From contig DAOTZR010000057.1 in the NCBI GenBank assembly GCA_034434315.1, forward strand, positions 1 to 53,678: a stretch of DNA of 53,678 nt, in the 5' to 3' direction. The stretch is from Anaerolineae bacterium. Lineage in GTDB: Bacteria; Chloroflexota; Anaerolineae; B4-G1; SLSP01. The stretch's first letter is position 1. Every line of letters starts with the position of its first letter. Below are positions 29,547 through 53,678 of this stretch, one piece after another. The notes under the pieces were generated by a model. The model made no database searches and was not told where the DNA came from. It saw nothing but the letters and a program-made list of their open reading frames with translations. The position numbers were made by a program, and so were the translations under genes.

Positions 29547-29927
29547 ATGCAAAATCGCAAGATCATGATCGTGGACGACGAAACTTTCATTCGCACTCTG
29601 CTGACGCAAACCCTGGAAGACCTGGAAGAGCAAGGTGTTGAAATTTTGACGGCCGGGGATGGAGAAGAAGCCCTGGCGTTGGCTCTGGATGAGGTACCGG
29701 ATTTGATTTTCCTGGATGTGATGATGCCGAAGAAAAGTGGTTATGAGGTCTGCGCCCAAATCAAGGCTCAACATCCGTCAACTTACGTGATTTTGTTGAC
29801 GGCGAAAGGGCAGGCTGTGGATAAGGAACAGGGCAATCGGGTTGGGGCCGATGAATACATTACCAAACCTTTCGACCCGGACTTCATCATGGAGCGAGCC
29901 GTAGACATTCTGCATCTGGAAGGCTAG
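29547..29927 (+). CDS. Stand-alone CheY-like response regulator receiver
   Basis: MIVDDE acidic pocket, phospho-Asp in IFLDVMMP, LLTA and ITKPF. AGGAGG RBS. 126 aa. Confidence 0.9.
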   Translation: MQNRKIMIVDDETFIRTLLTQTLEDLEEQGVEILTAGDGEEALALALDEVPDLIFLDVMMPKKSGYEVCAQIKAQHPSTYVILLTAKGQAVDKEQGNRVGADEYITKPFDPDFIMERAVDILHLEG

Positions 29928-29944
29928 CCGTGCCTGGATGATGT

Positions 29945-37508: not shown

Positions 37509-37596
37509 AAAGTCAGGTCTTGCGCATAGATGGAGCATTGTCAACGCAAGGGAATCAAAACCTGGTTGAAGCTGAAAACATGGAAGGATACATCCT

Positions 37597-39447
37597 ATGG
37601 AAACGACCCTGACATTGCGTAAACTTCTCAATCGGCGGACTATCCAGCAATGGCTCCAGGCCCTCTCTGCCGTATTGCCCGAGGCCTATCTGGCCCTGGA
37701 AGATCACGATGGGCGCATTCTGGCAGAAGCTGGTGAGCCTGTTGCCTCCGCGGAGACCTCGGAACGCTATCCCTTGAAATATAGAGAGCATCTCTACGGG
37801 ACTTTACAGGTGCAGTGCGCCGGGTTGGCAATGCCAGAAGTGACCGCGCTGATCTATTTTGCCTTACAGAGTTTATCTAATCTGTTGATGATCGCTTTAG
37901 AAAATCGTTCCCTGGCTCAGGAGACGCTGGAGCGCTACCGCGAGATCAACCTGCTCTACAACATTGGTGAAACCATCAATACATCGCTGGATCCACAGCA
38001 AATCCCTGGTCTGGTACGCGATGAAGCTGCGCGTATCATCAATGCTGATTTTGGCGTAGTGTTGCTCATGGAAACCCAGCGTGCTCCGGGCCTGCGTTCC
38101 AGTTTTGGTGATGAGGTCCTGGTAGATGAGGCGCTCAGTCTGTTGGATAGTTCCATTCAAGCTATTCTGCAGGATGGTAAGCCGCGCATCATCACCACGG
38201 AGCAGTTCGACCATCCAACCCAGACGCAAATCGCCAGCGTGCTCTGCGCTCCCCTGAAAACACGCGAGCGTATTCTGGGAGTTGTCCTTCTGGGGCGCTG
38301 TCTGGGGCGGGAGATCTTTACGGCTGGGGATGAAAAGCTGCTCACCACCCTGGCCACCCAGGCCGCTATCGCCGTAGAGAATGCCCGGCTGTTTGCTGAT
38401 TTGCGTCAGCAACGTGATGAGATTGCCGCCATGAAGACCTACATGGATAACGTCTTCGCCAGTATTGCCAGCGGTGTGATCACGACCAATAACGCCAATG
38501 AAATTGCCACGATCAATCGCGCGGCCCGTGAGATTCTGCGCGTTGAGGATGCACAGGTTCTGGGGCGGTCATGCACTGATGCTATTCCCATGGTCGGCTC
38601 ACTGCTGCTTCCTCTGATGCATGAGGTTCAGCTTACGGATCGCGTGGTCCAGAAAGAACTGAACACCGAACTCCCCGGACGGGGGCCGGTGTATTTGCGG
38701 GTACATCTGAGTCCATTGAAGGACAATTATGCCCAGCGCACCGGTATCGCTATCGTGCTGGACGACTTGACGGAAACGCGCCGTCTGGAAAAGCGCGTTG
38801 AACTGATCGAAAAGACCTTTAAGCAGTATGTTGTGCCCAGTGTCGTGGAACAACTCCTTTCCAATCCAGACCAGGTGCGCCTGGGCGGTGTCCGCCGCGA
38901 GATCACCGTCCTTTTTGCCGACATTCGCGGTTTCACGGCCTTTAGCGAACGCACGGACCCGGAGCGGCTGGTGGAGATCCTTAATCGCTATCTCACGCTG
39001 GCGGCGGACGCTGTCCTGAATGAGGAGGGCACACTGGATAAATTCATGGGGGATGCGGTGATGGCGATTTTTAACGCACCGCTGGAGCAGACCGACCATA
39101 CGTTACGGGCCGTGCGCGCGGCTATTGCCATTCGCGATTCGATTCGGCGCCTGCATGAGCAACTCGATCCGCCTTATCGCTTGAATTTCGGCATTGGCAT
39201 TACGTCTGGGGCGAGCGTTGTGGGCAATATCGGCTCTACAGAGATCCGCAATTACACTGCCATTGGGGATAGTGTGAACCTGGCCTATCGCTTCCAATCC
39301 CATGCCGGACCAGGACAGATTTTCCTGAATGAGCTGGCTTACCGGCATGTGCAGTCGCGAGTTGAAGCAGTGATGCGCGGGCCGATTCTGGTTAAGGGCC
39401 ACACGGAACCGGATATCGTTTATGAGGTCTTGAGCCTGAAGGAATAA
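37597..39447 (+). CDS. GAF-PAS class III adenylate cyclase
   Basis: GAF block (…LCAPLKTRERILGVVLLGR…AAIAVENARLF) and a PAS-like segment. The cyclase core has FADIRGFT and GDAVMA (metal Asp), DKFMGD Lys plus NYTAIGDSVN Thr (adenine-type specificity pair), and VNLAYR (Asn/Arg). Confidence 0.88.
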   Translation: METTLTLRKLLNRRTIQQWLQALSAVLPEAYLALEDHDGRILAEAGEPVASAETSERYPLKYREHLYGTLQVQCAGLAMPEVTALIYFALQSLSNLLMIALENRSLAQETLERYREINLLYNIGETINTSLDPQQIPGLVRDEAARIINADFGVVLLMETQRAPGLRSSFGDEVLVDEALSLLDSSIQAILQDGKPRIITTEQFDHPTQTQIASVLCAPLKTRERILGVVLLGRCLGREIFTAGDEKLLTTLATQAAIAVENARLFADLRQQRDEIAAMKTYMDNVFASIASGVITTNNANEIATINRAAREILRVEDAQVLGRSCTDAIPMVGSLLLPLMHEVQLTDRVVQKELNTELPGRGPVYLRVHLSPLKDNYAQRTGIAIVLDDLTETRRLEKRVELIEKTFKQYVVPSVVEQLLSNPDQVRLGGVRREITVLFADIRGFTAFSERTDPERLVEILNRYLTLAADAVLNEEGTLDKFMGDAVMAIFNAPLEQTDHTLRAVRAAIAIRDSIRRLHEQLDPPYRLNFGIGITSGASVVGNIGSTEIRNYTAIGDSVNLAYRFQSHAGPGQIFLNELAYRHVQSRVEAVMRGPILVKGHTEPDIVYEVLSLKE

Positions 39448-39455
39448 GCCAGGAC

Positions 39456-42400
39456 ATGCTAGCGAACCAGCGTGAACATCAAGAGCGTTCCGACTTGCCT
39501 TCTGAGCGGGTCTGGTCTGCGCTGCGTGCTCTCCTGGAGTGTTCTACGTCCCTCGATTTCGCTCAAGTCATGACCCACCATGTGGGGACCTGGCCGGGTG
39601 TGGCTAAGGCCACACTGATCTTGTTGGATGGTGAGACAGGTCGGCCTCTCCATGCCGTTTATCACATGGCGCCCGCCACGATGCCGGCCTCGGAATCCAC
39701 CACGCTGGCCCTGGACTATCAACAGAAAACCTGCGCCTGGCTGGCCCTGGCCCCTATAGCGGGGGAAGCTTTGCCCGCGGTTACGCTGGCCGATACTCAG
39801 CTCCTGGTTCAGGCGGCTGTCCCGGTGCTGGTCCGGCTCCAGGCTCTGGAGGCCGAACGGGCGCAGCGCTCCCTGGCGGATGTGTTGTGCCGTTTGAGCG
39901 CGGAGATGGGCCAGGCAGCGGAAGAACCCACGTTGCTGTTTCAGGTGTTGAGTTATCTGGCGCGCGTTGTGCCTTATGAGTATGCTACGGTGCTCATGCG
40001 CGATGGGGAAGCCTGGCGTTATTTCACCCCCATCCATCCGGACATGCGTCCGGTAGAGGACGATTTTAGCCTGGCGCATCTGGATTTGTTGGAACAATTC
40101 CGGCAGGAGCGCAGGCTGTTGCTACTGGAAGAGGCTCTTTCCTGGCGCCCAGGGCATGCAGGGGAGCGCGTGGCGAGCTGGATGGGTATCCCCTTGCTGG
40201 TCCGCGGGGACCTGTGGGGGCTGATCGCGCTTGAAAGTCAGTTGTCAGGGGCTTTTCAGCCCGGTCATGCGCAAATGGCCACCGTTTTTGCGGAGCAGGT
40301 GGCGCTGGCCCTGGACAATACTCGCTTGTATCGCGAGGAACGCCAACGCCGTGAGGAGCTGGAGACTATCCAGCGCTTGAATTTGCTGGTGGCTTCGGAG
40401 TTGGAGCTGGAACCGCTGCGTCAGGCCATTGTCCAGGCCGTATACGGCCTGGTGCAACCTGAGCGGGTGAGCTTGTACGTCACCGGCGATGAGGGCGGGG
40501 ATGCGCAGGTGCAGGCTGCTCTCCTGGAGGCCCGGCCCTGGAAAACCCCCGAAACGGAAGACGGCGCCGGAATGCGGCTGGTGATGCCCCTTCACCTGGG
40601 GGCGCGGGTGGTGGGAGCGCTGGATTTGTGTTGGAAACCGGGAACTTATCGCCCCTCCTATCAGAGCCGCCTGCAGGCCCTGGCCCCGCAGATTGCCGTG
40701 GCTTTGGATAAAGCGCGGCTGTACCAGACGGCGCTGGAGGCCGGACAACGGCGCGCTGTGCTCCATGCCGTGGGGCAGGAGATTATCAGCGCTGTACGCG
40801 ATCTGCCCTCGTTGTATGCGGCCATCCATCGTGCCACCTTGCAGTTAATGGCTTGTGATGCGTTCTTCCTGGGCTTGGTGACTGAAGCTGAAGATGCCAT
40901 TGAGGTGGTGTATGCGGTGGACCGGGGCAAGGTGTATACGGGGGTGCGGGCTCCCCGCGGGCAGGGCCTGAGCTGGCATGTGGTCACAACCGGTCAGGCC
41001 CTCCTCATTGGCGAACAGGATGCATCGAATTTGGGCGTTAAGGCTATTCAAGTGGGCGAGGAGCCGGTGCGCTCTTTGTTATTTGTGCCCATGCGTCTGG
41101 AGCAGCGGATCCTGGGTGTGCTTTCGGCTCAGAGTTACCGGCCTGACGCTTATACCAACGATGATATCCTCCTTCTGGAAATGCTGGCGGCTCAGGCTGC
41201 TATCGCCATCGAGAATGCACGGCTGTTGCATCAGACGCAGAGACGCGCGGCTTTTCTGGAGGCTCAGAACGCCATCATTGTTTCGGCGGCGGCGGCCCAG
41301 GACCTGTCGGAGGTGCTGGCGCAGATTCTGGACCTGGTAATGAGCGTGTTACAGGTGTCGCTGGGGGGTATCTGGGTGGGGACACGGTATGAGGTGCGGA
41401 ATCTTCCCCAGTTCGCAGCCTATGTGGATGAGGCTATGCAGTATACGCAACAGTTAGAGCTGACAAGCCCCCTGACTGTTTCTGACTGGTATACGACCGA
41501 GCTGACCGGTCTGCGGGCCTATACCGGGCCTTTCCTGATGCGTCTGGGTTTCCGTTCTTCTCTGACTGTGCCGATTAAGACACAGAACCAGACAATTGGG
41601 GGATTTTTGATCGGGACTTCCGAACCGCGCCATTGGAATACAGAAGAGATTGCTCTGGTGGAGACGGTAGGGCATCAGGTCGGGACGGTGGTCCGCCGGC
41701 TGCAACTTGTGGCGCAAACCCAGGCCCAGGCCCAGGAGTTGGAACGTTACAGCCGTTCTCTGGAAGAGCAGGTGCAGGCACGGACCCGGGAGCTGGAACG
41801 CGCTTACCAGACCTTGAGCGAGCAGCATGCCCGCCTTGACGCGATTTTGCGGCACATCACCGATGCCCTGGTGGTCACGGATAGGGAGGGGCGGATTGTC
41901 CTGGTGAATCCGGCCTTTTGCGCTCTGGTGGGACGGGATGCCGGGAATTTGAAGGGGACGCTTTTAAACGCCGTCCTCCCCTCTCCTGCTCTGGAAGAGG
42001 CTTTGAAGCAGGTGCTACAGGCTGCGGAATCCAGGGTGAGCGCTACTTATGAGTGTGCCGGGGGCGTGTACCGCGGTACGTCCGTTGTGCTCGCGGGGAC
42101 GGACCCGCTTTCCATCGTGACGGTTTTGCATGATATTACGGCTGATGTCGAGATGGCGCGCATGAAGGATGATTTTGTCTCCACGGTTTCTCATGAGTTG
42201 CGCACGCCTATGACCTCCATTTTGGGGTTCAGTCAGTTGATTGGGCGGCAATTTCAGCGCCATATTGTGCCGCATTTGCCCAAGGACAGGCCGGAGGTGC
42301 AGAAAGCCGTGGCGCGGATCACGGAGAACCTGGACATTATCGCTCAGGAGGGGGCGCGGCTTACCCGGCTGGTCAACGACACCCTTGATCTGGCCCGCAT

Positions 42401-42938
42401 GGAATCCGGGCGCCTGGAATGGGCTTCCAAACCTTTCACGCTACAGGAGGTGGTTTCGGCCACTCTGGCCGCTTTGCGCTCGTTGATGTTGGAGAAACAT
42501 CTTGCAGTGCACACGACTGTGCCACCCGATTTACCTGCCCTGGTGGGGGATCCGGATCGCATCATTCAGGTCCTCACGAACCTGGTGGGGAATGCCTTGA
42601 AGTTTACGGATCGCGGGGCGATTACACTGACCGCCGGGCTGGTGCCGCCTGGAAGCGATGTGCCTGCGTGGGGCATACGCCAGCCAGGGGTGGAGATCGG
42701 GCTACCAGCGCCTTGTCCGCTTGTGCTGGTGTGTGTGACCGATAGTGGCCCAGGTATCCCAGAGGCGGATATGGCCCGTCTGTTCCAGCGTTTCCAGCAG
42801 GGTGGGAGTCGGCGCGGCGGGAGTGGCCTGGGCCTGGCGATTTGCCGTGAGATCATTCAACACCATCACGGCGCAATTTGGGTTGAAAGCCGGCTGGGAC
42901 AGGGCAGCCGCTTTTGCTTCACACTTCCCCTGCCTTAA
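39456..42938 (+). CDS. Cytoplasmic multi-GAF (4-5) PAS histidine kinase
   Basis: 1160 aa. The repeated GAF blocks end in ALALDNTRLY, AVALDKARLY and AIAIENARLL. H-box TVSHELRTPMTSILGF, N-box NLVGNALKFT, DSGPGI and GSGLGLAICREII. Confidence 0.88.
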   Translation: MLANQREHQERSDLPSERVWSALRALLECSTSLDFAQVMTHHVGTWPGVAKATLILLDGETGRPLHAVYHMAPATMPASESTTLALDYQQKTCAWLALAPIAGEALPAVTLADTQLLVQAAVPVLVRLQALEAERAQRSLADVLCRLSAEMGQAAEEPTLLFQVLSYLARVVPYEYATVLMRDGEAWRYFTPIHPDMRPVEDDFSLAHLDLLEQFRQERRLLLLEEALSWRPGHAGERVASWMGIPLLVRGDLWGLIALESQLSGAFQPGHAQMATVFAEQVALALDNTRLYREERQRREELETIQRLNLLVASELELEPLRQAIVQAVYGLVQPERVSLYVTGDEGGDAQVQAALLEARPWKTPETEDGAGMRLVMPLHLGARVVGALDLCWKPGTYRPSYQSRLQALAPQIAVALDKARLYQTALEAGQRRAVLHAVGQEIISAVRDLPSLYAAIHRATLQLMACDAFFLGLVTEAEDAIEVVYAVDRGKVYTGVRAPRGQGLSWHVVTTGQALLIGEQDASNLGVKAIQVGEEPVRSLLFVPMRLEQRILGVLSAQSYRPDAYTNDDILLLEMLAAQAAIAIENARLLHQTQRRAAFLEAQNAIIVSAAAAQDLSEVLAQILDLVMSVLQVSLGGIWVGTRYEVRNLPQFAAYVDEAMQYTQQLELTSPLTVSDWYTTELTGLRAYTGPFLMRLGFRSSLTVPIKTQNQTIGGFLIGTSEPRHWNTEEIALVETVGHQVGTVVRRLQLVAQTQAQAQELERYSRSLEEQVQARTRELERAYQTLSEQHARLDAILRHITDALVVTDREGRIVLVNPAFCALVGRDAGNLKGTLLNAVLPSPALEEALKQVLQAAESRVSATYECAGGVYRGTSVVLAGTDPLSIVTVLHDITADVEMARMKDDFVSTVSHELRTPMTSILGFSQLIGRQFQRHIVPHLPKDRPEVQKAVARITENLDIIAQEGARLTRLVNDTLDLARMESGRLEWASKPFTLQEVVSATLAALRSLMLEKHLAVHTTVPPDLPALVGDPDRIIQVLTNLVGNALKFTDRGAITLTAGLVPPGSDVPAWGIRQPGVEIGLPAPCPLVLVCVTDSGPGIPEADMARLFQRFQQGGSRRGGSGLGLAICREIIQHHHGAIWVESRLGQGSRFCFTLPLP

Positions 42939-42960
42939 TCTATGCAGAAAGGAACAGTGT

Positions 42961-43413
42961 ATGGGACGGATTTACGATGGGTTCATTCAGTTTTTCAAGC
43001 AGGATGACTGGCCCTACCAGGAGATAGAAGGTCGTCCCCTTATCCGCACCGGCTTTGCCGGAAAAAACGGGGAATGGGCCTGTTTTGCTCAGGCGCGTGA
43101 GGATATGGAGCAATTTGTGTTCTACTCGATTGCCCCGGTGAAGGCCCCGGCTGAGAAACAAGCTGCTGTGGTGGAGTTTCTCACCCGGGCCAATTACGGC
43201 ATGATCATCGGCAACTTCGAGTTTGATTATTCGGATGGCGAGGTGCGGTATAAAACGGCCCTGGATGTCGAGGGCGGCGACGCCACCTTCCCGATGTTGC
43301 GCAATCTGATCTACATCAATGTACGCACTATGGACCGCTACCTGCCAGGTCTGATGAAGGTGATCTACACGGATATTGCGCCGGCTGACGCTATTCGCGA
43401 AATAGAGGGCTGA
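42961..43413 (+). CDS. YbjN-like putative sensory-transduction regulator
   Basis: The 150-aa acidic protein begins at ATG 42961 (MGRIYDGFIQFF...). The pattern F....W.Y......l...f.G..g.w...... ...Y.....v......LTRANYGMIIGNFEFDYSDGEVRYKTAL fits the YbjN/T3SS-chaperone-like fold. The longer 222-aa ORF is read-through from the kinase in another frame. Confidence 0.55.
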   Translation: MGRIYDGFIQFFKQDDWPYQEIEGRPLIRTGFAGKNGEWACFAQAREDMEQFVFYSIAPVKAPAEKQAAVVEFLTRANYGMIIGNFEFDYSDGEVRYKTALDVEGGDATFPMLRNLIYINVRTMDRYLPGLMKVIYTDIAPADAIREIEG

Positions 43414-43450
43414 AACAACTCCAGAAGCTCCTGAGGCAGGGGGATCAAGT

Positions 43451-43482
43451 AAACCTGGCGCCCAGCACCGGACGCCAGGTTT
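43451..43482 (+). terminator. Hairpin after the ybjN-like gene (possible weak terminator)
   Basis: AAACCTGGCG-(12 nt)-CGCCAGGTTT, a 10-bp stem with no real U-tract. It is followed by TTGCGC-N15-TATAAT (43481..43507), a possible promoter for the next gene. Confidence 0.35.
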
Positions 43483-43631
43483 GCGCCTGTGTCAACCCGG
43501 GTATAATTGTGAGGGCAGGCTTTAACCATGATGTGTGGCCGCCTGTCGCTTTTAAAGCGGCGGACAGCCTGGGCCTGGTATGGTTTTAGGGGTAGTGTTG
43601 TGTTTATTTTAAGGCATTATTTTGAGGTTGT

Positions 43632-45158
43632 ATGGCTGATTCTACAGTACCTGTACATATCCTGGTGGTGGATGACAATCCCAACATTCGTGACTTCATC
43701 AAGGATTCCCTGCTGGAGCCACAGGGCTATCGTGTCAGCGTAGCGGTAGATGGGCAGGAGGGTGTCGAAAAAGCCCTGGAACTCAGGCCCGACCTGATTC
43801 TGCTGGATTACGAAATGCCGCGCCTGAATGGGATTGAGGTGTTGCGAGCCCTGCAAAAGCATCAGGTGATGATCCCCGTCATCCTTATCACATCCTATGG
43901 TTCGGAGTCCGTGGCCGTGGAGGTTTTCCGCCTGGGCGTGCGGGACTATGTGCCCAAACCCTTTACCGCGGAAGAGCTGTTTGCGGCCATAGACCGGGTT
44001 CTGCATCAGGTTCATCTGGAACGTGAACGCGATCAGCTTATGGAGCAGTTGCAGGTGACCAATCGGGACCTGGCCCAGAGGTTGAAAGAGCTGGACACGC
44101 TGTACCATGTGAGCAAATCCGTGACGACGCTGTACGAGCGCGAAAAACTGATGGAACGCATTGTGGACGCCGCGCTCTACATCACGGGCGCTCTGGAGGG
44201 GCTGCTGGTGCTGCTCGATCCCCAGACGGGTGAACCGCGCGTCGCCACGCATCGCATCTATGCCAACAATGAGTATCGCTCTCTGGAAAGTCGGGCCTTG
44301 ATGTTGCACGACACAGATTTGATGGTCAGCGTTCCCCTGCAATCGCGGGGTCAGGTTATCGGCGCCCTGACCATGAGCAATAAAATGAGCCGTCAGCCGT
44401 TCAGTTCACACGATCGGCTTCTGTTAAAGATGCTAGGGGACTATGCTGCAATCGCCATTGAAAATGTGCGTCTGTTAAACGAACTGGAAGAGCGCCGCGA
44501 ACGTGAGAAGCGCGAGTTGCGCACCCTGTTTGAACATTACGTGGCCCCGCAGGTCGTGGAGCGCATCCTGAAACACCCCCAGAGCGTGCAGCCTGGAGGC
44601 CAGCGCCATACCATCAGCATTCTCTTCGCCGATATTCGAGGGTTTACCGCTTTCAGTGCCCAAACTGCTCCAGAGGTTTTGATGGGGGTCTTGAATCAGC
44701 ACCTGGGGTGTGCCGCCGGTGTGATCCTGGAGGAAGAGGGTACCCTGGATAAATTCCTTGGGGACGGCGTGATGGCCTTTTTTAACGCGCCTTTGCCCCA
44801 ACAGGACTATGCTTTGCACGCCGTTCGGGCCGCCTGGAAGATTATCGAGCGCGTTCAGGCCATGCACGCGGAACTCCCGGTCCAGTACCGCCTGCCTCTG
44901 GGCATCGGTATCAGTACCGGTGAGGCCGTTGTAGGCAACCTGGGCACGTCGCATCTGGTCAACTACACGGCGATTGGCTCCACGGTGAACAAGGCCCATG
45001 CTTTGCAGGAGCTTGCTGGCCCCTGGAAGGTGCTTATCTGCCAGCGCACCTATGATTTGGTGCGCGACAAGGTGCGGGCCAGGACCCTCCCCGCCGTATG
45101 GATTAAGGGCCAGGCTCAGCCTGAGCCGGCCTACGAAATCGAAGCGCTGATGGAGTGA
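43632..45158 (+). CDS. Response-regulator receiver + GAF + class III cyclase-homology domain (variant catalytic motif)
   Basis: REC motifs [19 protein letters not shown] and VPKPF. GAF block (…[19 protein letters not shown]…[11 protein letters not shown]). The cyclase core has [18 protein letters not shown] and [10 protein letters not shown], but reads VNKAHA where VN.A.R is expected. Confidence 0.85.
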
Positions 45159-45166
45159 GACAGGCC

Positions 45167-45691
45167 ATGCCGGTCTTTTTCGATCTGGAGACGCAAAATA
45201 TTTTTGAGGACGTAGGGGGCCATTTTCCCGAACGGCTCAGGCTTTCGGTAGCGGTCACTTTCGATGACCGCACCGAAAGCTGGCGGCGTTTCACCGAGGC
45301 CAATGTGGCCGACCTGATTGCACAGTTGCAACAGGCCGACCGCGTCGTGGGGTTCAATCTGCTGGGTTTCGATTACCTGGTCTTGAAAGCCTACACGCCG
45401 CTGGACCTGAGCACGCTACCCACCGTGGACATGTTGGCTATCATCGCCCGGCAGTTGGGCTACCGTGTGAGCCTGGATGCTCTGGCGACGGCAACGCTGG
45501 GCGAAACCAAGAGCGCTGACGGCTTACAGGCCGTGCGCTGGTGGCGCGCCGGGCGCATCGAGGAGGTGTTCCGCTACTGCGAACAGGACGTTCTGGTCAC
45601 CCGGCGCCTGTATGAGTTTGGGCGCAGCTATCACTACGTTCAGTTCTACGATAAACGCTACCGGCTTCAGCGCGTTCCGGTAAACTGGTAA
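45167..45691 (+). CDS. DnaQ/PolB-type 3'-5' exonuclease-fold (RNase H-like) protein
   Basis: ExoI-like FFDLETQN, ExoII-like VGFNLLGFDYLVL and ExoIII-like YCEQDVLVTRRLY. Start is at ATG 45167, or at GTG 45155 overlapping the cyclase stop. Confidence 0.65.
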   Translation: MPVFFDLETQNIFEDVGGHFPERLRLSVAVTFDDRTESWRRFTEANVADLIAQLQQADRVVGFNLLGFDYLVLKAYTPLDLSTLPTVDMLAIIARQLGYRVSLDALATATLGETKSADGLQAVRWWRAGRIEEVFRYCEQDVLVTRRLYEFGRSYHYVQFYDKRYRLQRVPVNW

Positions 45692-45702: not shown

Positions 45703-46278
45703 CTACGTGTCCACGTTCCACTGCAACGGGTGAATGCCGCTCAGCACCACCTCGCCCTCCGGGGTGATGATGACCTCTGCTTCGGGCACGCTGCTGAGCG
45801 CTGCCAGTGTGTAGCGCGATGTAAGGAAGTAGACCTCTTTGTTGGCCGATCCGCGCAGGTCGCGTGCCAGGCGCTGCGTGGCCAGGTACCGCCCGCAGAT
45901 CAGGACATCTACATGCGCCAGCAGCGCCTGGACTTCGGGCATGGCCTCCAGTTCCGTTCGGGTGTAGCCGGTAAAAAGGATGACCGACAGCGTCGAGGCC
46001 GCGCGTACCGCTTCCAGCAACCGCCGCAAAGGGCGCACCTGTTGGAGTGGCTCGCCGCCGCTGATGGTGAGACCTTCGAGCTCAGGCAAAGCCAGGATTT
46101 GCCGGGTCAGGTCTGCCACCGACACGGACGTGCCGCCCTGGGGAGCGTGGGTTTGCGGATTGTAACATCCCCGGCAGTTCAGGGTGCAGCCCTGGACCCA
46201 AAGCACAGCGCGCAGGCCCGGCCCGTTGGCCGCACTCCGCGGCCAGAAACTGTGGATTCTCAGCTCGTCTTCAGCCAT
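45703..46278 (-). CDS. NrdG-like radical-SAM activating enzyme (no glycyl-radical partner in the window)
   Basis: NGPGLRAVLWVQGCTLNCRGCYNPQTH (CxxxCxxC cluster in an NrdG-type context), LTISGGEPLQQ, ILFTGYTRTEL, DVLICGRY and LRGSANKEV. It aligns by eye along its whole length with E. coli NrdG. Confidence 0.8.
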   Translation of the reverse strand: MAEDELRIHSFWPRSAANGPGLRAVLWVQGCTLNCRGCYNPQTHAPQGGTSVSVADLTRQILALPELEGLTISGGEPLQQVRPLRRLLEAVRAASTLSVILFTGYTRTELEAMPEVQALLAHVDVLICGRYLATQRLARDLRGSANKEVYFLTSRYTLAALSSVPEAEVIITPEGEVVLSGIHPLQWNVDT

Positions 46279-46466
46279 GTCTGGTTGGGCAGACTTTCAT
46301 CCGTCGCATAAGCTGCAGGCAGCATGTCGCGCGCCAGAATTTCGTTGCCCAGGGCCTCCTCCAATGCGCGGGTCAGGTCCAGGCAGGCCATGCCCTTGAC
46401 GCCGTGCACCTGGATGGTGACTTCGCCATTGGGCGCGATAATGATTTCGATTTCCTGATACTCCAT
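46260..46466 (-). CDS. DUF2997-family small protein
   Basis: The 68-aa MEYQEIEIIIAPNGEVTIQVHGVKGMACLDLTRALEEALGNEI... begins at ATG 46466. A GAGGAGG RBS overlaps the DUF1257 stop (TGAGGAGGAAGCCATG). It is hidden inside the 171-aa ORF 46260..46775. Confidence 0.7.
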   Translation of the reverse strand: MEYQEIEIIIAPNGEVTIQVHGVKGMACLDLTRALEEALGNEILARDMLPAAYATDESLPNQTWLKTS

Positions 46467-46476
46467 GGCTTCCTCC

Positions 46477-46860
46477 TCAGACCATGCGCCGCAAGCGCAG
46501 ATGGATGCAGCCCTTCTCGTCCACTTCCTCCCCGGCCAGGGTGAATCCCTGCGCTTCCAGACGCTGCCGGGCCAGGATGGTGGCGTACCGTTGGGTGAGC
46601 TGGCGGGTAAACTCGTTGGCTTTGAGTCCCCGGACACCCCACCAGTCGGCGACGATTTCGTAGCCATCCGGCGTCGCCTGGAAGCCGATTTCGTAACTTG
46701 AGCGGCTGGGACGAAACTTAAAGTCAACCCGGTGTTTGGCCCCTCCAAAACCACGGATTGCGCCGGGGCTGTCACTTACCGTGTAGCCCATCTGCTCCAA
46801 CGCAGCAATGAGCGCGGCTTTATCTTTGAGACGAATTTTCAAACGGGTGAAATGGGACAT
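46477..46860 (-). CDS. Ycf35/DUF1257-family protein
   Basis: MSHFTRLKIRLKDKAALIAALEQMGY...IRGFGG...YEIGFQATPDGYEIVADWWGV is the DUF1257 signature. GAGGAG RBS. Confidence 0.75.
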   Translation of the reverse strand: MSHFTRLKIRLKDKAALIAALEQMGYTVSDSPGAIRGFGGAKHRVDFKFRPSRSSYEIGFQATPDGYEIVADWWGVRGLKANEFTRQLTQRYATILARQRLEAQGFTLAGEEVDEKGCIHLRLRRMV

Positions 46861-46883: not shown

Positions 46884-48464
46884 TCAGGTCAAACGGATGA
46901 CAGGGTAATCCTTGTACACTAGCTTGCCGGTGCGCAAATCACGCGCTGTGAGCAAGAGCCGCTTGTTGGCATCAATGCTGAAAACAATTTCAAAACATTT
47001 CTCGCCCTGGTGCGCTGGCGGGTCAGCTACCAGGAAGGTGGGCTGGTGTTCATTCATCCAGAAGTACTGGCGGCGGTATTGCTCTTCGGCACTGGTGGGC
47101 GTCAGGCGCGCCGCTCCACTGGGGTCGAACACCAGCTCGAAAGCCCCTACGGCCTGGGTCCGTGTCTCACTCACCTCGAACAGTGCAACGCCCAGTTGGA
47201 TCTGTTGATCGTACGAGGCTTTGACGGTGAGCCGCGCTATGGCTTCCGCCGGATAGGGAGTGCCGCGCTCAACAATCGTCCAGTAGTCGTAATCCTGCTT
47301 TTCGCGATTCACATAGCGGATGGCGTAGCTGTGTTGAATGTGATCGTAAAAATCCATGCCGGCAGCAAAGGCCGCTGCCCCACGGGCAATGGCATCCAGG
47401 GGCCGTTTCAGCCGGACCCGCTCCGCGCCAAAACTGCGTTGCAGCAGACTTTGTACAGCCGGAATCTGACTGCTGCCTCCCACCATCAAAATCGCCTTGA
47501 TGTGGTCTTCATCGTATCCCCGCTCATAAGCGCCGTTCAGAGCGCGGCGCAAGGTGCGCTCGATGGTGGTAAAAGCGCCGTGACGTTCCAACAGGGCTTC
47601 GAACTGTTCACGGGTGTAATCGGCTGCCAGCACCGTTCCGGTTTGAGGATCCACAACGCTGATGGTCGCCTGGGGGTGCTGCGAAAGGTGGACTTTGGCC
47701 TGCTCGCACTCCAGCAGTAACCAGGTACTGACGCGGCGCACCAACTCGTCAGCATCCGAACGTTGATGGCGCTGCAGGACATCCATGAACAGCCATTGGT
47801 CGAGCACCGCGCCCCCAAGGTCCGCTCCCGCTTTGCCCAACACGCGGCAGCGCTGGCCGCTGGTGTTCTCCTCAATCAAGACCACCGCCGTGTGCACGGT
47901 GCCCCCTCCAAAATCGAAAATCAGATACACATCGCCTGGGCGAATCGGAGCGCCGTACCCAAGGGCCGCCGCCGAAGGCTCATCAATCAGGCGGAAGCGC
48001 GGCATATCGTTTTGCTGGGCAATGCGCGTCAGCCAGTCCTCATAGTGCTCAAAAGCTTCCACCGGAACGCTGAAAGCCACTTCTTCGGCAGGATCCTGGC
48101 CAGTTTCCTGCCGGGCGAACAGGAGCACAGTGCTGAGAAAGTCCTGCGCTGCTTCATAGGGGGTGATGTCGCGGTCACCTACGCGGACGCGATAGGGGCT
48201 GCGCTGCGCGATATACCGCTTCATCCACCGAAAAGTGCCGGGCGCATGGGCCAGGTTCTGCTGCAGCACTTGCGCCCCCAGCCAGCGGCGTCCATCCGCC
48301 TGGTAATGGATGAGCGAGGGGATCACGGCTACCTGTTCACCCCCCTGAGGGTAAAAATGGCTGTAATCGGGGATGAACACGGGTTTCCCTTCCTCGGCCA
48401 GGGCATCCCACAGGGCGATAACCGTGTTGGAGGTGCCGAAATCAATGCCCAACCGGCCTGCCAT
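46884..48464 (-). CDS. Non-canonical Hsp70-family ATPase lacking the helical lid
   Basis: Actin-fold motifs GIDFGTSNTVIA, LIDEPSAAALGYG, IFDFGGGTVHTAVV and MVGGSSQIPAVQ. The SBD-beta-like end IVFSIDANKRLLLTARDLRTGK terminates the protein at 526 aa. A strong GGAGGGAGGAG RBS is present, and the start lies 23 nt inside the GrpE-like gene. Confidence 0.85.
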   Translation of the reverse strand: MAGRLGIDFGTSNTVIALWDALAEEGKPVFIPDYSHFYPQGGEQVAVIPSLIHYQADGRRWLGAQVLQQNLAHAPGTFRWMKRYIAQRSPYRVRVGDRDITPYEAAQDFLSTVLLFARQETGQDPAEEVAFSVPVEAFEHYEDWLTRIAQQNDMPRFRLIDEPSAAALGYGAPIRPGDVYLIFDFGGGTVHTAVVLIEENTSGQRCRVLGKAGADLGGAVLDQWLFMDVLQRHQRSDADELVRRVSTWLLLECEQAKVHLSQHPQATISVVDPQTGTVLAADYTREQFEALLERHGAFTTIERTLRRALNGAYERGYDEDHIKAILMVGGSSQIPAVQSLLQRSFGAERVRLKRPLDAIARGAAAFAAGMDFYDHIQHSYAIRYVNREKQDYDYWTIVERGTPYPAEAIARLTVKASYDQQIQLGVALFEVSETRTQAVGAFELVFDPSGAARLTPTSAEEQYRRQYFWMNEHQPTFLVADPPAHQGEKCFEIVFSIDANKRLLLTARDLRTGKLVYKDYPVIRLT

Positions 48465-48945
48465 CGGCTCCTCCCTCCGTGCTGGCGCTGACGCCGGGCC
48501 GGGCTATCACCCGTCCGCGATAGCGCAGACCTGGCACGCACACCTGGGCGCGCTCACCGGGCCGGAGTGGCGGCCCTACAGGAATGTGCAGCGTGGGGTC
48601 GAAGCGTACCGCCATGCCGATGGGCTCGCTTTCTTCCAGCCCGTGGCTCTTGAGGACGGCGAGCAAGCGCTGCACAATGCGCCACAGGTCCTGCGCCGAA
48701 ACAGCCTGTCCCTGTTCGATGAGCGTGCCTTGCAAGATCAGTTGCGCTATGGGCGCTCCCAGGTCGAGGAACAAAGCCTCCACCCGTGCCACAACCTGAG
48801 CCTCGAGGGCCTCCCCGCCCTGGCGACGCCTTTCGGCCTCGCATTCCTGCAGGGCCAGGCGCAGGCTCTGCACCTCGGATTTCAGTTTCAACAACTCCAT
48901 GGCGTCCTGATCCGTTTTTTCGGCTTTGCGTGACCAGAATGGCAT
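48442..48945 (-). CDS. GrpE-like nucleotide-exchange factor
   Basis: N-terminal coiled coil followed by the GrpE-type C-terminus GLEESEPIGMAVRFDPTLHIPVG...GERAQVCVPGLRYRGRVIARPGVSAS. ATG 48945 is preceded by AGGAGG. The ORF-track start at 48993 is a GTG overlapping the upstream stop. Confidence 0.65.
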   Translation of the reverse strand: MPFWSRKAEKTDQDAMELLKLKSEVQSLRLALQECEAERRRQGGEALEAQVVARVEALFLDLGAPIAQLILQGTLIEQGQAVSAQDLWRIVQRLLAVLKSHGLEESEPIGMAVRFDPTLHIPVGPPLRPGERAQVCVPGLRYRGRVIARPGVSASTEGGADGRPVGH

Positions 48946-48989
48946 GACGTCCTCCTGAATGATTATGTCCCGGCTGGGCCGATGGGCCC

Positions 48990-51092
48990 TCACCCTTCCA
49001 GCTCGATGTCGAACTCGCCCACCACCAATTCTGGCGCTGCTTCCAACTCGATTTCATAGCGTCCGCGATGCAGCAGCACCAGGATGGTGAACTCCAGGGC
49101 GCGGCGGATGGCCGGGTCCAGCGTCGGGCGCTCGGCCAGCCAGCGCAGATGGCCGGCACTGGCGGGATTCAATTGGGCCATGGGCCGGGCGAACAAATAG
49201 GGCAGCTCCAGCAGGCGCAAATCCCAAAGGGCGAACGAGGTTTCGCTGGTTCCCAGGGCCATGAACGCGCCATCGGCTGAAACCTGCAGTCCGGTGACGT
49301 GTCCACTGTGCACATCCAACTCCAGTACCGGCGCCCAGTTTTCCAGATCGACCCCGCGCAACAGGCCGCTGCTATCCAGACTCAGTAACAGATTGTAGCG
49401 CGGCAATGCGGCCAATCCCACCACGGTAGCCGGATGCCGGGTCAGCTCGCGTTTCGGCGCCGAGCTCATGCTCTCCAGGTCCAGCAAGACCACCTGTCCC
49501 TGATGCATACCCAGCACCAGGTCTTTCTGAGCCAGGGTGGCTGTTTTCACCCGACCATTGGCAAAGCGCCAGCCCACTTCCTTGAGATTGGGCAAGGTCA
49601 GGTGCGTGATCAGATGGCCCAGGAACACCAGGCTCTGGTCGTGGACCGGGCAGAGCTGGTGTGCCCAGCCATGCATCTCGCGCTCGCCCAGCAGCCTCCC
49701 CGAAGGAAGCTCCCACAGTCGCAACGTGCCCTCGCGTCCGGATGAAACGCCCCAGGCCTCCCCAACCACAGCCACACTGGCCCGCCCTCGATGCTGTCCC
49801 AGGGCGCGCGTCTCTTCGGGGCGCTTGAGATACACGCTGACGGGCGCGTCAGCGCGTTGGGCGCGTTCGCTGCACAGCAGCCATTCGGTCGGGGTGAAGG
49901 CGACCTGATGGACCGCGTGCTGGAAGCGGGTGAACAGGGCCGTCCGCTGCGCCTTCACGTAATCCCACAGCACGACCCGCCCGGTGCCGATGGCCGCAGC
50001 CAGCAGAGGGCTTTGCGGCGCGAAGGCGACCGCATTCACGCGGCCCGGTGCGCGCACCAGGGCCATCTGTTGCAGCAAGGCCTGCTGCTTGCGGATCTGA
50101 TCGGGCACGGCGAGCACTCCCGCCCGGACCAGGGCGCCCAGTTTGACCAGCAGGTCCTGATCCCCGGCAGCGGACGGTTGCCAGCCTGCAGCCAGCAGGC
50201 GTTCCATCACCCAGGCGCTCCAGGCGGTATGCACCTGCGGGACCAGCTCCCATAAAGCCGGCCATTGCTCTTCCTTGACCATAATGTCCAGCACCAGCTG
50301 TGTTTCAGCAGGCGTGAGGGCCGCAGCCCGGAGCCGGTTTTCGCCACCTGTGAGAATGGGCAGGAAATCCGTCCGTCCGGCTCGTCGCAGCCGCTCGCGG
50401 ATGCGCGCGCGCAGGGGTTCAGTGGCGGTTGTGTAAAGTGCGCGCAGTCGGCGCCGGTCGAAATCCAGGGCGTCGTACGCTTCCCAGCGCTCCTGGAGCA
50501 ACCAGTACAGCGCCCGTTCCTGTTCATCCTCAGGTTCGAACGCCTGGTTGGCCAGCGCCTCCAAAGCCAGAGGATGGTCACTTTGGCGCGCCAGGTCCCA
50601 CAGGGCTTCCAGCGCCTTTTTGCGCTTGAGACCCAAAAGCGCCCGGCGCGCCCGTTCGGCTATCAGGGGATCCGGGTCGGCACAGGCCTCTAACAGAGCG
50701 GGTAAGCTGGCTGCTCCTATGCGTTCGGCTAGCTCCTGCGCTTTGTTCTGGAAGAGGAACGTGAGGACCCGCACATGGATCGGAGCTTCCGCGACCCAGC
50801 CCTGTTCGCGCAAAAACTGGCTCAGATGGGGCGCGCGCGTCCGACTCCAGATCTGGCAAATGTGATCGCGTTTTATGGGCGCATCAATTCGGCGCAACCT
50901 GGCCCGGACCAGGGCCTGGACCTGGGGATCGGGATGTTCCAGGGCCTCGACCAACGCATCCAGTACCGGCAGCGAATTGCCGGCCAGGGTCAGAAGCCAG
51001 GCGGCCAGGCGTTGGACCCAGGGGGCCAGGGCGGGGAGCGCATTCCAGGTGAGCCAGGATTTTAACCAGGGCATGAGCGTGCCGGATATCAC
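48990..51092 (-). CDS. HEAT/ARM-repeat + WD40-like beta-propeller protein
   Basis: The N-terminal half has HEAT-like units (LEHPDPQVQALVRARLRR, ACADPDPLIAERARRALLGL). The C-terminal half has WD-like blades (GRVVLWDY, GTLRLWELPSG, GLLRGVDLEN, TSFALWDLR). The GTG start at 51092 overlaps the ycf46-like stop (GTGA). An alternative ATG is at 51074. Confidence 0.65.
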   Translation of the reverse strand: MISGTLMPWLKSWLTWNALPALAPWVQRLAAWLLTLAGNSLPVLDALVEALEHPDPQVQALVRARLRRIDAPIKRDHICQIWSRTRAPHLSQFLREQGWVAEAPIHVRVLTFLFQNKAQELAERIGAASLPALLEACADPDPLIAERARRALLGLKRKKALEALWDLARQSDHPLALEALANQAFEPEDEQERALYWLLQERWEAYDALDFDRRRLRALYTTATEPLRARIRERLRRAGRTDFLPILTGGENRLRAAALTPAETQLVLDIMVKEEQWPALWELVPQVHTAWSAWVMERLLAAGWQPSAAGDQDLLVKLGALVRAGVLAVPDQIRKQQALLQQMALVRAPGRVNAVAFAPQSPLLAAAIGTGRVVLWDYVKAQRTALFTRFQHAVHQVAFTPTEWLLCSERAQRADAPVSVYLKRPEETRALGQHRGRASVAVVGEAWGVSSGREGTLRLWELPSGRLLGEREMHGWAHQLCPVHDQSLVFLGHLITHLTLPNLKEVGWRFANGRVKTATLAQKDLVLGMHQGQVVLLDLESMSSAPKRELTRHPATVVGLAALPRYNLLLSLDSSGLLRGVDLENWAPVLELDVHSGHVTGLQVSADGAFMALGTSETSFALWDLRLLELPYLFARPMAQLNPASAGHLRWLAERPTLDPAIRRALEFTILVLLHRGRYEIELEAAPELVVGEFDIELEG

Positions 51093-52621
51093 GGTTGGAG
51101 TTGCAATGGCACGAAGCGCTGTTGGGCCTCACGGACTTCACGGAAAGAAGCCGATTGCGCTCGCCCCTCCAGGAGCCAGGCGCGCAGCGCTTCTACCTGC
51201 TCGCGCTGAGAGATGGACAGCGGCACCAGGCGTCTCAGGGCTTCGAGGATGTCGTTGGTAGTAAACTCGCGGTTTTCGCCGAAACCGTTATACATCGCAT
51301 CAATGATGGCCTGTTCGATTTCCGCTCCGGTATACCCTTCAGCCTGACGGGCCAGGCGCGGCAGGTCGAAGTCCTGGGGCAGGCGCTTGCGCTTACGGAG
51401 ATGGACGGTGAAAATCTCCTCGCGCTCCTCCTGCGTAGGCAGGTCGAGGAAGAAGATCTCGTCGAAGCGCCCCCGACGTAGCAATTCGGGGGGGAGGCTG
51501 CTGATGTCGTTGGCGGTTGCTACCACGAAACACGGGGCGGTTTTTTCCTGCATCCAGGTGAGGATGGTTCCAAAAACGCGCGTGCTGGTGCCGCTATCCA
51601 GACCGCCATGGGCCAGGGCCTTCTCCATCTCATCAATCCACACCACACAGGGGGCTATGGTTTCGGCCAGATGCAAAGCCCGGCGCGTGCGCTCCTCCGA
51701 CTCGCCCACCAGACTGCCGAAAAGCGCGCCGACATCCAGGCGCAACAAAGGCAAGCGCCACAATCCGCCAATCATCTTAGCCGTGAGGCTTTTCCCCGTG
51801 CCAGGGATGCCGATGAGGGCAATGCCCTTGGGCGCTGGCAGTCCGTAATCACGGGCCTCTTGCGTGAAAGCACGTTCACGCAGGCGCAGCCAGTTCTTCA
51901 ATACGCCCAACCCGCCGACATCCTCCAGGGTTTCGCTCGCGCTGGAGAATTCCAGGGCTTCATGGCTGCGGATGAGCTGTTTTTTCTCCTCGGTGATCGC
52001 CTCAATATCACGCTCGTCCAGCTTCCCATTGCGGACAAGACAGCGAGCGAAGGCGCGCTGCGCCTGGGCCAGGGTCAGGCCCAACGCCGCCTGCACCAGC
52101 TTCTCCCGCCCCAGCGGGGTCAAATCAGAACGAACCCCCGGCGTCTGGAGTAACTGTCCCAGGGCGGCATCCAGTTCGGCGGCTGAAGGCAGGGGCAGTT
52201 CAGTGAGGACCGCCTCGTCGCGCAGTTCGAGCGGAACCTGGCCGGCTGGCGTGAGCACAAGCAGGGATTTCCGGGTATAACGCAGGTCCTGAGCTGTGCT
52301 GCGCAATTTGCGCTTCACCTGGGCATTGTTCCACACCTCATGGAAGTCCTTCAACACCAGCAACAGGGGATCCGAAGCCTTTTCGACATAGTCCAGGGCC
52401 TGGAGCGGGTCGCGGATGGCCGGGGGGAAGGAAAACGAACCACTGAGCGGCTGAAAGCCGTTGGCCAGGTCCCAGGTCAGGGCAGGGCGCTTCTGCCGTT
52501 CGCAGACGTTCTGGAGCATGCGCAGTGCCCGCTCCTCTTCTACCGTGTTGAGGACAATCAACGTAAAACGCGCGCGCAAGTACAAATCCAGTTGCTCTTC
52601 AAAAATCAACCTGTCTCCCAT
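51089..52621 (-). CDS. Ycf46-family AAA+ ATPase
   Basis: Classical AAA core with Walker [13 protein letters not shown], Walker [14 protein letters not shown] sensor-1 region and [16 protein letters not shown]. The ~240-aa N-domain ([13 protein letters not shown]...LTWDLANG...LLLVLKDFH) and the ~510-aa length match my recollection of plastid/cyanobacterial Ycf46. GGAGG RBS. Confidence 0.8.
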
Positions 52622-52823: not shown

Positions 52824-53447
52824 TCAGAGCTTCCTCAGAGCAAACACACATTCTGTGGTCTGGGTCTCCCCGACGGCTGCACAGCTCGTCTCGGTGACCT
52901 CAAAATAATCCTCCAGCTCGGCCCATTCCAAAGCCTGCTGCAGGAAGCCCAACGTGCTGTGACAGACAGGCTGGGCCTCATGCTTCCGGCCCCAGCACGC
53001 CGGGCAGGGGGCAACATGATAGAGTAGCACCCCGTTTTCTTCGGTGAGGTACGTGCGTACCGTGCTCTGTTTGCTCATGCCCTTGATGATGGCTTCCAAA
53101 AGGGTTTTAATCCGGGGGCGCGGGGGCAAGAGCTTGAACGCTACACCGGCCAGGCCCAAGGCGCTCCCCAATTGTTCGATGGCGGCGTTAAAAGCCGCAC
53201 GTCCGGCGCGGAGCGCTAGAGCCCGTCCGCCGCGCGGACCGTACATCTCTTCCAGGACCTGGTTCATGCGCGAGAAATCGTCCAGGCTTACTTCCAGGGC
53301 GTCATTGTAGTCGGGCGGATTGGCAATCCAGGCCTCCAGATTCGCCAGACGCAGCACGGCATGCAACCCATGCTGCCCGATAACCTCAGTAATGGCGTCA
53401 AGGTAAATCCGTGTGCGGCGGTTAGATTGCCTGTGTTGTGTTTCCAT
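52824..53447 (-). CDS. V4R (4-vinyl-reductase-like) small-molecule-binding domain protein
   Basis: The C-terminal V4R Cys pattern is VAPCPACWGR...PVCHSTLGFLQQAL...EVTETSCAAVGETQTTECVF. The start was moved to ATG 53447 (METQHR) because a consensus promoter lies inside the longer 243-aa ORF. The RBS is purine-rich (GGAAAGGACGGGGAAG). Confidence 0.65.
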   Translation of the reverse strand: METQHRQSNRRTRIYLDAITEVIGQHGLHAVLRLANLEAWIANPPDYNDALEVSLDDFSRMNQVLEEMYGPRGGRALALRAGRAAFNAAIEQLGSALGLAGVAFKLLPPRPRIKTLLEAIIKGMSKQSTVRTYLTEENGVLLYHVAPCPACWGRKHEAQPVCHSTLGFLQQALEWAELEDYFEVTETSCAAVGETQTTECVFALRKL

Positions 53448-53495
53448 CTTCCCCGTCCTTTCCTGGATGGAACCCTTATCACAAAGGTTATATAG

Positions 53496-53524
53496 ATTAT
53501 AGCTATTCTTGGGTAAGAATGCAA
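53496..53524 (-). promoter_or_regulatory. Near-consensus sigma70 promoter: TTGCAT-N17-TATAAT (minus strand)
   Basis: On the plus strand, ATGCAA at 53519..53524 is the -35 and ATTATA at 53496..53501 is the -10. The spacer is 17 nt, and the -10 lies 49 nt upstream of the V4R ATG. Confidence 0.65.
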
Positions 53525-53678
53525 CTGTGTTAAAGTCCGGGGCTTGTGCTGCCATGGATCGTGCAAGGCTTCAATTGGTTTAAGGAGCTGGAAAAGGCGG
53601 GGCCTTCCTGTGGTCTGGGTGGGAAAGGCCGAGCACACTTCCTCACACACCCACCAGCCTGCCAACCCCTCCCCAGCC

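Follow-up and report, generated by a model that had tools for sequence, protein, structure and literature searches.

What does an enzyme that resembles the activator of a glycyl-radical reductase do where no such reductase is encoded nearby? The question is raised by positions 1-53,678 (here, the window) of contig DAOTZR010000057.1 of an Anaerolineae bacterium (GenBank assembly GCA_034434315.1), where the last gene of a minus-strand operon encodes a 191-aa radical S-adenosylmethionine (SAM) protein similar to NrdG, immediately behind a gene for a DUF2997 protein. This protein belongs to an orphan family of radical SAM enzymes that resemble activases and form a distinct sister group to NrdG. 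Its gene is conserved, though dispensable, as the fourth component of a module encoding an AAA ATPase, a DUF1257 protein and a DUF2997 protein.

The gene product is, judging from its sequence, a catalytically competent radical SAM enzyme. Every motif listed in the first-pass annotation is present, namely NGPG (residues 18-21), GCTLNCRGCYN (30-40), SGGEP (73-77), TGY (103-105) and RGSAN (142-146), and the general activase signature (CX3CX2C, GGE SAM motif, N-terminal GxGxR loop) is complete. Pfam thresholds are passed for Fer4_12 (PF13353; 111 bits vs 22) and Radical_SAM (PF04055; 34.2 vs 29.5). Across 46 family representatives C31, C35, C38, G19, P20 and G74-G75-E76-P77 are invariant, and N18, G21 and R23 are conserved in at least 90%; such retention of catalytic residues argues for an active enzyme rather than a relic. 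All NCBIfam activase models match (NrdG, 106 bits; PflA, 68 bits; also YjjW, CutD, BssD and others, these running through the N-terminal NGPGxR-CX3CX2C-N-x-x-T region), and the sole PDB relative detectable by sequence is the PFL-activating enzyme (3c8f, E 3.6e-11). The QueE cut-offs are not reached (TIGR04349, 23 vs 300 bits; TIGR03963, 15.7 vs 260 bits) and the PADLOC viperin model (pVip) matches marginally (E 0.0024). Of the earlier description as an NrdG-like glycyl-radical activase, the likeness to NrdG stands; identity as an activase, which draws on motifs, is better read as putative.

The likeness is close but partial. NrdG (TIGR02491) is the top NCBIfam model (106.1 bits, E 1.6e-30) and is covered in full by residues 8-150, so that the alignment with NrdG previously reported over the whole length holds for these residues but not for the last ~40 (residues ~150-191), which lie outside the model and form a family-specific C-terminal extension that aligns in nearly all of the top 150 HMMER matches, the few others being fragments. 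The window protein also falls short of the TIGR02491 equivalog cut-off of 126.1 bits, as do the family representatives (46/46; best E 1.6e-33, estimated to be still under the cut-off). Three NrdGs from nrdD-bearing records served as references: those of Klebsiella phage KP15, where nrdG and nrdD lie ~2.5 kb apart, and of a Salinivibrio and an Aeromonas plasmid, where the two genes are adjacent. In the phylogenetic placement that had been proposed at first pass, here a neighbour-joining tree rooted on E. coli PflA, the family stands apart from these nrdD-linked NrdGs, which form a clade with 100% bootstrap outside it. Identity between the enzyme and phage and bacterial NrdGs is ~31-37%. Beyond GSxN, family members continue for 41-60 residues but the three NrdGs for only 17-20, and the family reads CFNPxTH where NrdG reads CYNKSTW; it shows neither the NrdG architecture (~155-165 aa) nor a grouping with functional NrdGs. 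What the two share is a small, single-cluster radical SAM protein with NGPGxR, GCxxxCxGCxN, SGGEP and GSxN motifs; unlike NrdG, the window family follows DUF2997, lies beside nrdD in none of the inspected loci and occurs in strict aerobes.

Relatives were found in at least 594 species genomes in a scan of one genome per species, with hosts among others in Chloroflexota, Planctomycetota, Verrucomicrobiota, Actinomycetota, Myxococcota, Eremiobacterota and Melainabacteria, and an exhaustive HMMER search (E <=1e-30) gave 188 clusters at 50% identity. The actinomycetotal hosts include Streptomyces, Actinoplanes and Actinomadura, and strict aerobes such as Streptomyces are among the hosts; Streptomyces is not known to use ribonucleotide reductases other than those of class I and class II. 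Dozens of members are labelled anaerobic ribonucleoside-triphosphate reductase activating protein (NrdG) by IMG/JGI, the NCBI label for the same members being 4Fe-4S single cluster domain-containing protein. The top rank of the NrdG model, these IMG labels and the presence of the family in some anaerobes (e.g. Bellilinea, Thermanaerothrix) would suit a genuine NrdG that serves an NrdD encoded elsewhere and stands in this operon by accident. Against this are the sub-cut-off scores, the separate clade and the extra 40-aa tail, the position behind DUF2997 in 50 of 80 loci across many phyla, with nrdD beside none of those inspected, and the recurrence of the family within the same module in strictly aerobic actinomycetes, on plasmids and on viral contigs. 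By its score, phylogeny, architecture and gene neighbourhood the protein was judged not to be a bona fide NrdG, a reading that is extremely improbable; the IMG label is probably a systematic mis-annotation, which would mislead inferences on anaerobic nucleotide metabolism.

As had been stated at first pass, no reductase is encoded nearby. Pfam scans of the seven operon proteins and of ten open reading frames (ORFs) of at least 500 aa in 1-38000 (ordinary enzymes, histidine kinases, a HerA-like ATPase and similar) gave no NrdD or other glycyl-radical enzyme, and two other ORFs of at least 500 aa (39456-42938 and 43632-45158), judged by translation alone, agree. A search of the window for the pattern R[VITC]xG[YFW] found none near the C-terminus of any real gene, which upholds the observation that no operon partner ends in an RVxG(Y/F)-type motif. 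Among the related loci whose neighbours were inspected, more than 100 in all, no radical SAM gene had nrdD or another glycyl-radical enzyme gene beside it.

The enzyme gene is the last of seven closely packed minus-strand genes running from 52621 to 45703:

51089-52621, minus strand: AAA+ ATPase, 510 aa (PF00004, 94 bits)
48990-51092, minus strand: scaffold of HEAT repeats and a WD40 beta-propeller, 700 aa (HEAT_2 and many beta-propeller families)
48442-48993, minus strand: GrpE-like protein, ~167-183 aa, start codon uncertain (weak PF01025 match)
46884-48464, minus strand: Hsp70-family protein, 526 aa (PF00012, 101 bits)
46477-46860, minus strand: DUF1257 (Ycf35-family) protein with an N-terminal MSH motif, 127 aa (PF06868, 67.5 bits)
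46260-46466, minus strand: DUF2997 protein, 68 aa (PF11211, 52.8 bits)
45703-46278, minus strand: radical SAM enzyme, 191 aa, ATG at 46278 (Fer4_12, 111 bits)
46260-46278, minus strand: overlap of the DUF2997 and radical SAM genes, 19 nt (read from sequence)

In gene order the junctions are overlaps of 4, 4 and 23 nt, gaps of 23 and 10 nt and an overlap of 19 nt. The last of these, between the DUF2997 stop codon (46260-46262) and the radical SAM ATG, matches the two ORFs and the overlap as first annotated; it is consistent with translational coupling of the two genes, and the start codon fits the N-termini of homologues, MAEDxLR(I/L)H.

Neighbourhoods were counted in 80 retained loci searched with the window proteins; several of the loci without a given neighbour are truncated by contig ends:

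DUF2997 neighbour: 58/80 loci
DUF1257 neighbour: 56/80 loci
WD40 scaffold neighbour: 49/80 loci, often duplicated
AAA ATPase neighbour: 48/80 loci
Hsp70 neighbour: 46/80 loci

The linkage to DUF2997 and DUF1257, whose absence from other genomes would have spoken against the first-pass interpretation, is therefore widespread. DUF2997 lies directly upstream on the same strand in 50 of the 80 loci, with a median estimated gap of ~3 nt and 12 overlaps, a tight junction in 50 of the 58 loci that have DUF2997, in keeping with the coupling proposed from the window. This pair outlasts nearly all rearrangements of the cassette (e.g. L024, L031, L063, L069). Gene order varies from enzyme-WD40-AAA...Hsp70-DUF1257-DUF2997 in locus L002 to WD40-GrpE-Hsp70-DUF2997-enzyme-AAA-DUF1257 in Streptomyces and Actinoplanes. 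Minimal modules of only DUF1257, DUF2997, enzyme and AAA genes are found in L040, L043 and L052. Plasmids of Paenibacillus polymyxa, Bacillus thuringiensis and Paenarthrobacter carry this set as well (~35-40% identity), and the four-gene core is also present on IMG/VR viral contigs. The functional unit is accordingly not the seven-gene operon but a mobile core of four genes, to which Hsp70, the GrpE-like protein and WD40 scaffolds are frequent additions.

The ATPase is a classic-clade AAA+ protein with a unique N-terminal domain of ~230 aa followed by an unfoldase module like the D2 domain of Cdc48/p97 (best PDB matches the D2 rings of NVL, VAT and p97, E ~1e-48), with full-length orthologues in phages and plasmids (phrog_8638, E 9e-151). 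Among 127 red-algal plastid genomes ycf35 and ycf46, which encodes an AAA ATPase, are often lost together, and the same, mostly freshwater, lineages also lose ycf34 and pbsA (PMC5940233); this co-loss hints that the module ATPase may correspond to Ycf46. The best PDB match of the Hsp70 protein is DnaK (E 1.7e-25, nucleotide-binding domain only), and its C-terminal ~150 aa read in translation as a probable substrate-binding beta domain lacking the helical lid. The GrpE-like protein is below the Pfam threshold (PF01025, E 0.0063); proteins at the same position match GrpE weakly in L001 and L086 and are annotated as GrpE in L095.

No description of the module was found in the literature searched, which covered DUF2997, DUF1257/ycf35, ycf46, Fed7, NrdG-like enzymes and radical SAM proteins in connection with Hsp70, and PADLOC 2.0 matched no described anti-phage system in full. 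PADLOC gave nothing for DUF1257, DUF2997 or the scaffold; the AAA domain resembles IetA (E 6e-22), although IetS is absent, and Hsp70 matches the candidate model PDC-M61B (E 6.7e-5). With only a generic AAA domain and marginal matches, assignment to a known defence system was rejected.

Is the enzyme needed for the rest of the core? The AAA-DUF1257-DUF2997 trio occurs without a radical SAM gene in Rhizobium phage RHph_I4 (L093, 2389-5711) and Pseudomonas phage SM1 (L094, 1794-5653), both lytic, where it sits between lysis genes and the replication genes for DnaB and DNA polymerase I. DUF1257 is also found, by protein matches, in Aeromonas phage HJ05 and the T4-like cyanophages P-SSM2 and P-SSM5, and PHROGs lists the AAA, DUF1257 and DUF2997 proteins as of unknown function (phrog_8638, phrog_20456, phrog_23133). 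Near-identical cyanobacterial cassettes with AAA, GrpE, Hsp70, DUF1257, DUF2997 and WD40 genes likewise lack the enzyme (L086, 4436-10651; L095, 6864-15021, on a Pseudanabaena galeata plasmid). The window ATPase scores 778 bits against the Pseudanabaena copy, suggesting recent transfer between Chloroflexota and cyanobacteria, and the cassette-borne cyanobacterial DUF1257 proteins that were compared are 43-46% identical to that of the window.

The two small partners are well defined as families (DUF2997, 52.8 bits vs a threshold of 24.1; DUF1257, 67.5 vs 22.2), and PDB sequence searches with either gave no matches. In DUF2997, G14, G22, G25, C28 and L39 are invariant in 62/62 sequences. The predicted core is strand-strand-helix-strand with a G22-x-x-G25-x-x-C28 loop, followed by a disordered tail, and C28, the sole invariant cysteine, is at the start of the predicted helix. 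A fold search from a model of low confidence (pLDDT 60) returned insignificant matches only. DUF1257 was modelled by AlphaFold2 with pLDDT 89, and Foldseek against the PDB gave no match below E 0.01 (TM-scores ~0.3). Its conserved motifs are MSH, QRYAY, QGF and LRR, the MSH start being near-invariant (Ser 64/64, His 61/64); the invariant N-terminal MSH has been noted for plastid Ycf35, a protein uncharacterised as of 2026 (PMC13060386). The window DUF1257 alone departs, by T9I and Y94T, from residues shared by at least 62/64 homologues; the Thr and Tyr are retained in its nearest relatives. Some cassettes encode two DUF1257 paralogues (L005, L006, L008, L061, L070): the type with an ADWWG motif adjoins DUF2997 and the type with an ISEYDR...YS motif adjoins the AAA gene, Streptomyces and Actinoplanes having the second type only.

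Because the enzyme is the fourth gene of a widespread module, its target is likely to be a module partner rather than a reductase, and DUF2997 is the prime candidate, being adjacent, co-translated and paired with the enzyme through rearrangements. It is quite possible, if somewhat short of probable, that the enzyme abstracts hydrogen from one of its partner proteins in the module, with DUF2997 the likeliest. Its [4Fe-4S] cluster would cleave SAM to a 5'-deoxyadenosyl radical, as in glycyl-radical activases, and this radical would remove hydrogen from a protein rather than from a small molecule, the likeliest site lying in or close to the invariant GxxGxxC loop of the co-translated DUF2997. A radical or modification formed in this way would prime or control the ATPase/DUF1257/DUF2997 machine, whose role may be in responses to stress or in the conflicts of bacteria with mobile elements. 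The closest similarity of the enzyme being to glycyl-radical activases, with QueE and viperin marginal, would favour such chemistry. The pairing of the PFL-activating enzyme with GrcA/YfiD shows that an activase can serve a small, free-standing protein, and this activating enzyme is also the one solved structure to which the window enzyme can be related; DUF2997 differs from GrcA/YfiD in its 68-aa length, in having no RVSGY-type loop, in unrelated sequence and predicted fold, and in occurring in modules without an activase. As a further step, DUF2997 could be a new miniature radical-bearing or radical-modified protein, in whose GxxGxxC loop the enzyme would install a radical, backbone or thiyl, or a modification that arises from it; this is unlikely, though with a real chance of being correct, and the Cdc48-like ATPase and Ycf35/DUF1257 would then apply the armed 68-aa protein to client proteins.

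Several points weigh against hydrogen abstraction from DUF2997. The phage and cyanobacterial loci suggest that the three-gene core works without the enzyme, and the DUF2997 Gly/Cys loop and the DUF1257 glycines are equally conserved in those modules; therefore these residues have a role independent of the enzyme. The search for conserved glycine loops in the partner alignments, as suggested at first pass, did reveal GxxGxxC, but the loop was rejected as a feature exclusive to enzyme-bearing modules. Alignments of 62 DUF2997 and 64 DUF1257 proteins contain no RVxG[YFW]-type loop, and with the pattern search of the window this eliminated a canonical glycyl-radical motif in the operon partners or the window; sequence comparison pinpoints no acceptor glycine in any module protein. 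The AlphaFold2 model of DUF2997 is of low confidence, and the homologue search for this protein was shallow, with 11 sequences. Many hosts are strict aerobes, in which oxygen would destroy a glycyl radical, and coupled translation would indicate co-expression, not a relation of enzyme to substrate.

Distant relatives of the enzyme bear on whether the substrate is a protein. Plasmids of Polaromonas (L087) and Moellerella (L090) encode relatives with 31-37% identity that keep the C-terminal extension; here the radical SAM gene is the last of five, after genes for a large AAA protein, a PIN-domain protein, a hypothetical protein and a ClpB-like AAA protein (PADLOC PDC-M37B/DolB-like), and anti-restriction, integrase and toxin-antitoxin genes lie nearby. 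On a Geminocystis plasmid (L092) a relative adjoins two DO-GTPase genes in a region that also has an anti-phage dCTP deaminase, a dGTPase and a BrnT toxin. These three sets look like uncharacterised defence-island systems. A nested subclade (44-52% identity) directly follows two enlarged TldD/PmbA-like metallopeptidase genes instead of DUF2997 (L045, L057, L066, L073 and L076, from Kofleriaceae, other Myxococcota and a proteobacterial metagenome-assembled genome); in L066 a carbon-nitrogen hydrolase gene comes after the radical SAM gene. Distant relatives thus always accompany protein-handling NTPases or proteases on mobile, island-like DNA, which fits a protein substrate.

The same surroundings could host a small-molecule enzyme, one that, by analogy with prokaryotic viperins or QueE, turns a nucleotide or SAM into a signalling compound, a toxic analogue or a modified base and so serves a conflict module under ATPase control as its effector. 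In favour, the module has a patchy, mobile distribution that takes in plasmids and phages; the Moellerella, Polaromonas and Geminocystis relatives lie near toxin-antitoxin, anti-restriction and dCTP deaminase genes; phage modules adjoin DNA replication genes; and the pVip match, marginal for the window protein, reaches E 5.6e-6 for a plasmid relative, with QueE matches, all weak, in 15 of the 46 representatives. Every protein-directed activase is nonetheless far closer than QueE or viperin, no nucleotide-handling gene is a constant neighbour, and family members hardly vary in the NGPGxR loop. In the PFL-activating enzyme a loop of this type contacts the peptide substrate. Small-molecule chemistry would, on this balance, be unlikely, if not negligibly so.

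A protein substrate need not be a radical carrier, and DUF2997 or its tail could instead be the precursor of a peptide that is epimerised or crosslinked and released by unfolding or proteolysis. The tail varies in sequence, and a glycine stands within its last three residues in 44 of 62 homologues (vs ~6 expected), often after W, L or K (...WLGG, ...KNG, ...LGH); the window protein ends ...WLKTS, without a terminal glycine. This glycine looks like part of a C-terminal docking or tag motif. A small 68-aa gene directly upstream of the enzyme, a disordered, variable tail enriched in terminal glycine, the sister subclade beside TldD/PmbA peptidase pairs and the radical SAM modification of a stand-alone peptide proposed for FtsH ternary systems (PMC7159879) all point towards peptide maturation. 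However, the DUF2997 core is a conserved folded domain and not a leader-plus-core peptide, DUF2997 is unchanged in modules without the enzyme, and the enzyme has no SPASM or RiPP-recognition domain; together with the lack of a terminal glycine in the window protein this leaves maturation very unlikely.

A last reading is suggested by the housekeeping locus of cyanobacteria. DUF2997, ycf35 and the [4Fe-4S] ferredoxin gene fed7 share an operon in almost all cyanobacteria, an arrangement kept from Gloeobacter through to Prochlorococcus; Fed7 has a DnaJ-like binding partner, and fusions of DnaJ with Fed7 occur in algae and plants (PMC4284462). As in the window, the same DUF pair is thus accompanied by a [4Fe-4S] protein in the operon and a link to the Hsp70 system, a combination that recurs. 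Unlike the window, the fed7 operon has a ferredoxin instead of a radical SAM enzyme and no AAA, WD40 or Hsp70 gene, and cyanobacteria and plastids inherit it vertically, whereas the window type is a mobile cassette. By this analogy the enzyme might be an iron-sulfur or redox partner in the role of Fed7, sensing redox state or oxygen or passing electrons or clusters to and from DUF2997 and DUF1257. It would then be handled by Hsp70 and GrpE much as IscU is by HscA, and its SAM chemistry would take second place. Besides the cyanobacterial operon and the Fed7-DnaJ link, this would be in line with a [4Fe-4S] protein following DUF2997 in an operon with Hsp70 and GrpE-like genes, with near-equal scores of the window Hsp70 on HscA and DnaK models, and with the single invariant cysteine of DUF2997. 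Phage modules, however, have neither ferredoxin nor enzyme and minimal modules have no Hsp70, and the near-invariance of GGEP and the activase loop speaks for catalysis rather than mere electron transfer, so that a purely redox role seems distinctly unlikely.

Protein-directed hydrogen abstraction thus remains the preferred reading. The closest conceptual relatives of the module are the chaperone-based, NTP-dependent conflict systems of Kaur et al. 2020 (PMC7159879), built on different cores. Their spread is similar (Chloroflexota, Actinomycetota, Cyanobacteriota, Planctomycetota, Myxococcota) and they share with the window module chaperone-type ATPases, Hsp70/GrpE and beta-propeller scaffolds. 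One subsystem combines a radical SAM enzyme with a peptide, and their DO-GTPases recall those beside the distant relative on the Geminocystis plasmid; their defining MoxR-vWA pair and GTPase core are absent from the window module. Radical SAM enzymes are mentioned once in that study, in the FtsH ternary systems, and it was not among full-text matches for DUF2997, DUF1257 or ycf35.

Genes flanking the operon appear to be separate from the module. Downstream, a convergent gene for an RNase H-fold 3'-5' exonuclease-like protein (178 aa; 45155-45691, plus strand) ends 12 nt from the radical SAM stop codon, so that the operon stops there; related genome loci have no counterpart of this gene, which was discarded as a module member. 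The module does have nuclease or replication genes in its vicinity in phages and on the Paenarthrobacter plasmid, and on the Geminocystis plasmid the distant radical SAM relative has an exonuclease gene close by. Directly upstream is a gene for a V4R-like protein (243 aa; 52824-53555, minus strand; 27.9 bits, below the threshold of 31), which is not kept beside the cassette in related loci and was likewise set aside. GAF/PAS histidine kinases are unusually dense across 26701-45158 and 8531-11062; proteins of 616 and 508 aa there resemble, by eye, GAF- or receiver-linked adenylate/guanylate cyclases, and one cyclase-like gene ends just ahead of the exonuclease gene.

Glycyl-radical activases are generally regarded as serving only large, oxygen-sensitive glycyl-radical enzymes. 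A family that keeps the activase motifs without such a partner implies either a wider substrate range for this chemistry or a new use of the fold. If DUF2997 does carry such a radical or modification, this would be the first glycyl-radical-type activase system outside the classical glycyl-radical enzymes, and one found in aerobes, plasmids and phages; it would also give a biochemical handle on the long-unexplained ycf35 of plastids and cyanobacteria. DUF2997 and Ycf35/DUF1257 span cyanobacteria, red-lineage plastids, plasmids and phages, and a radical SAM partner offers a biochemical entry point to their function.

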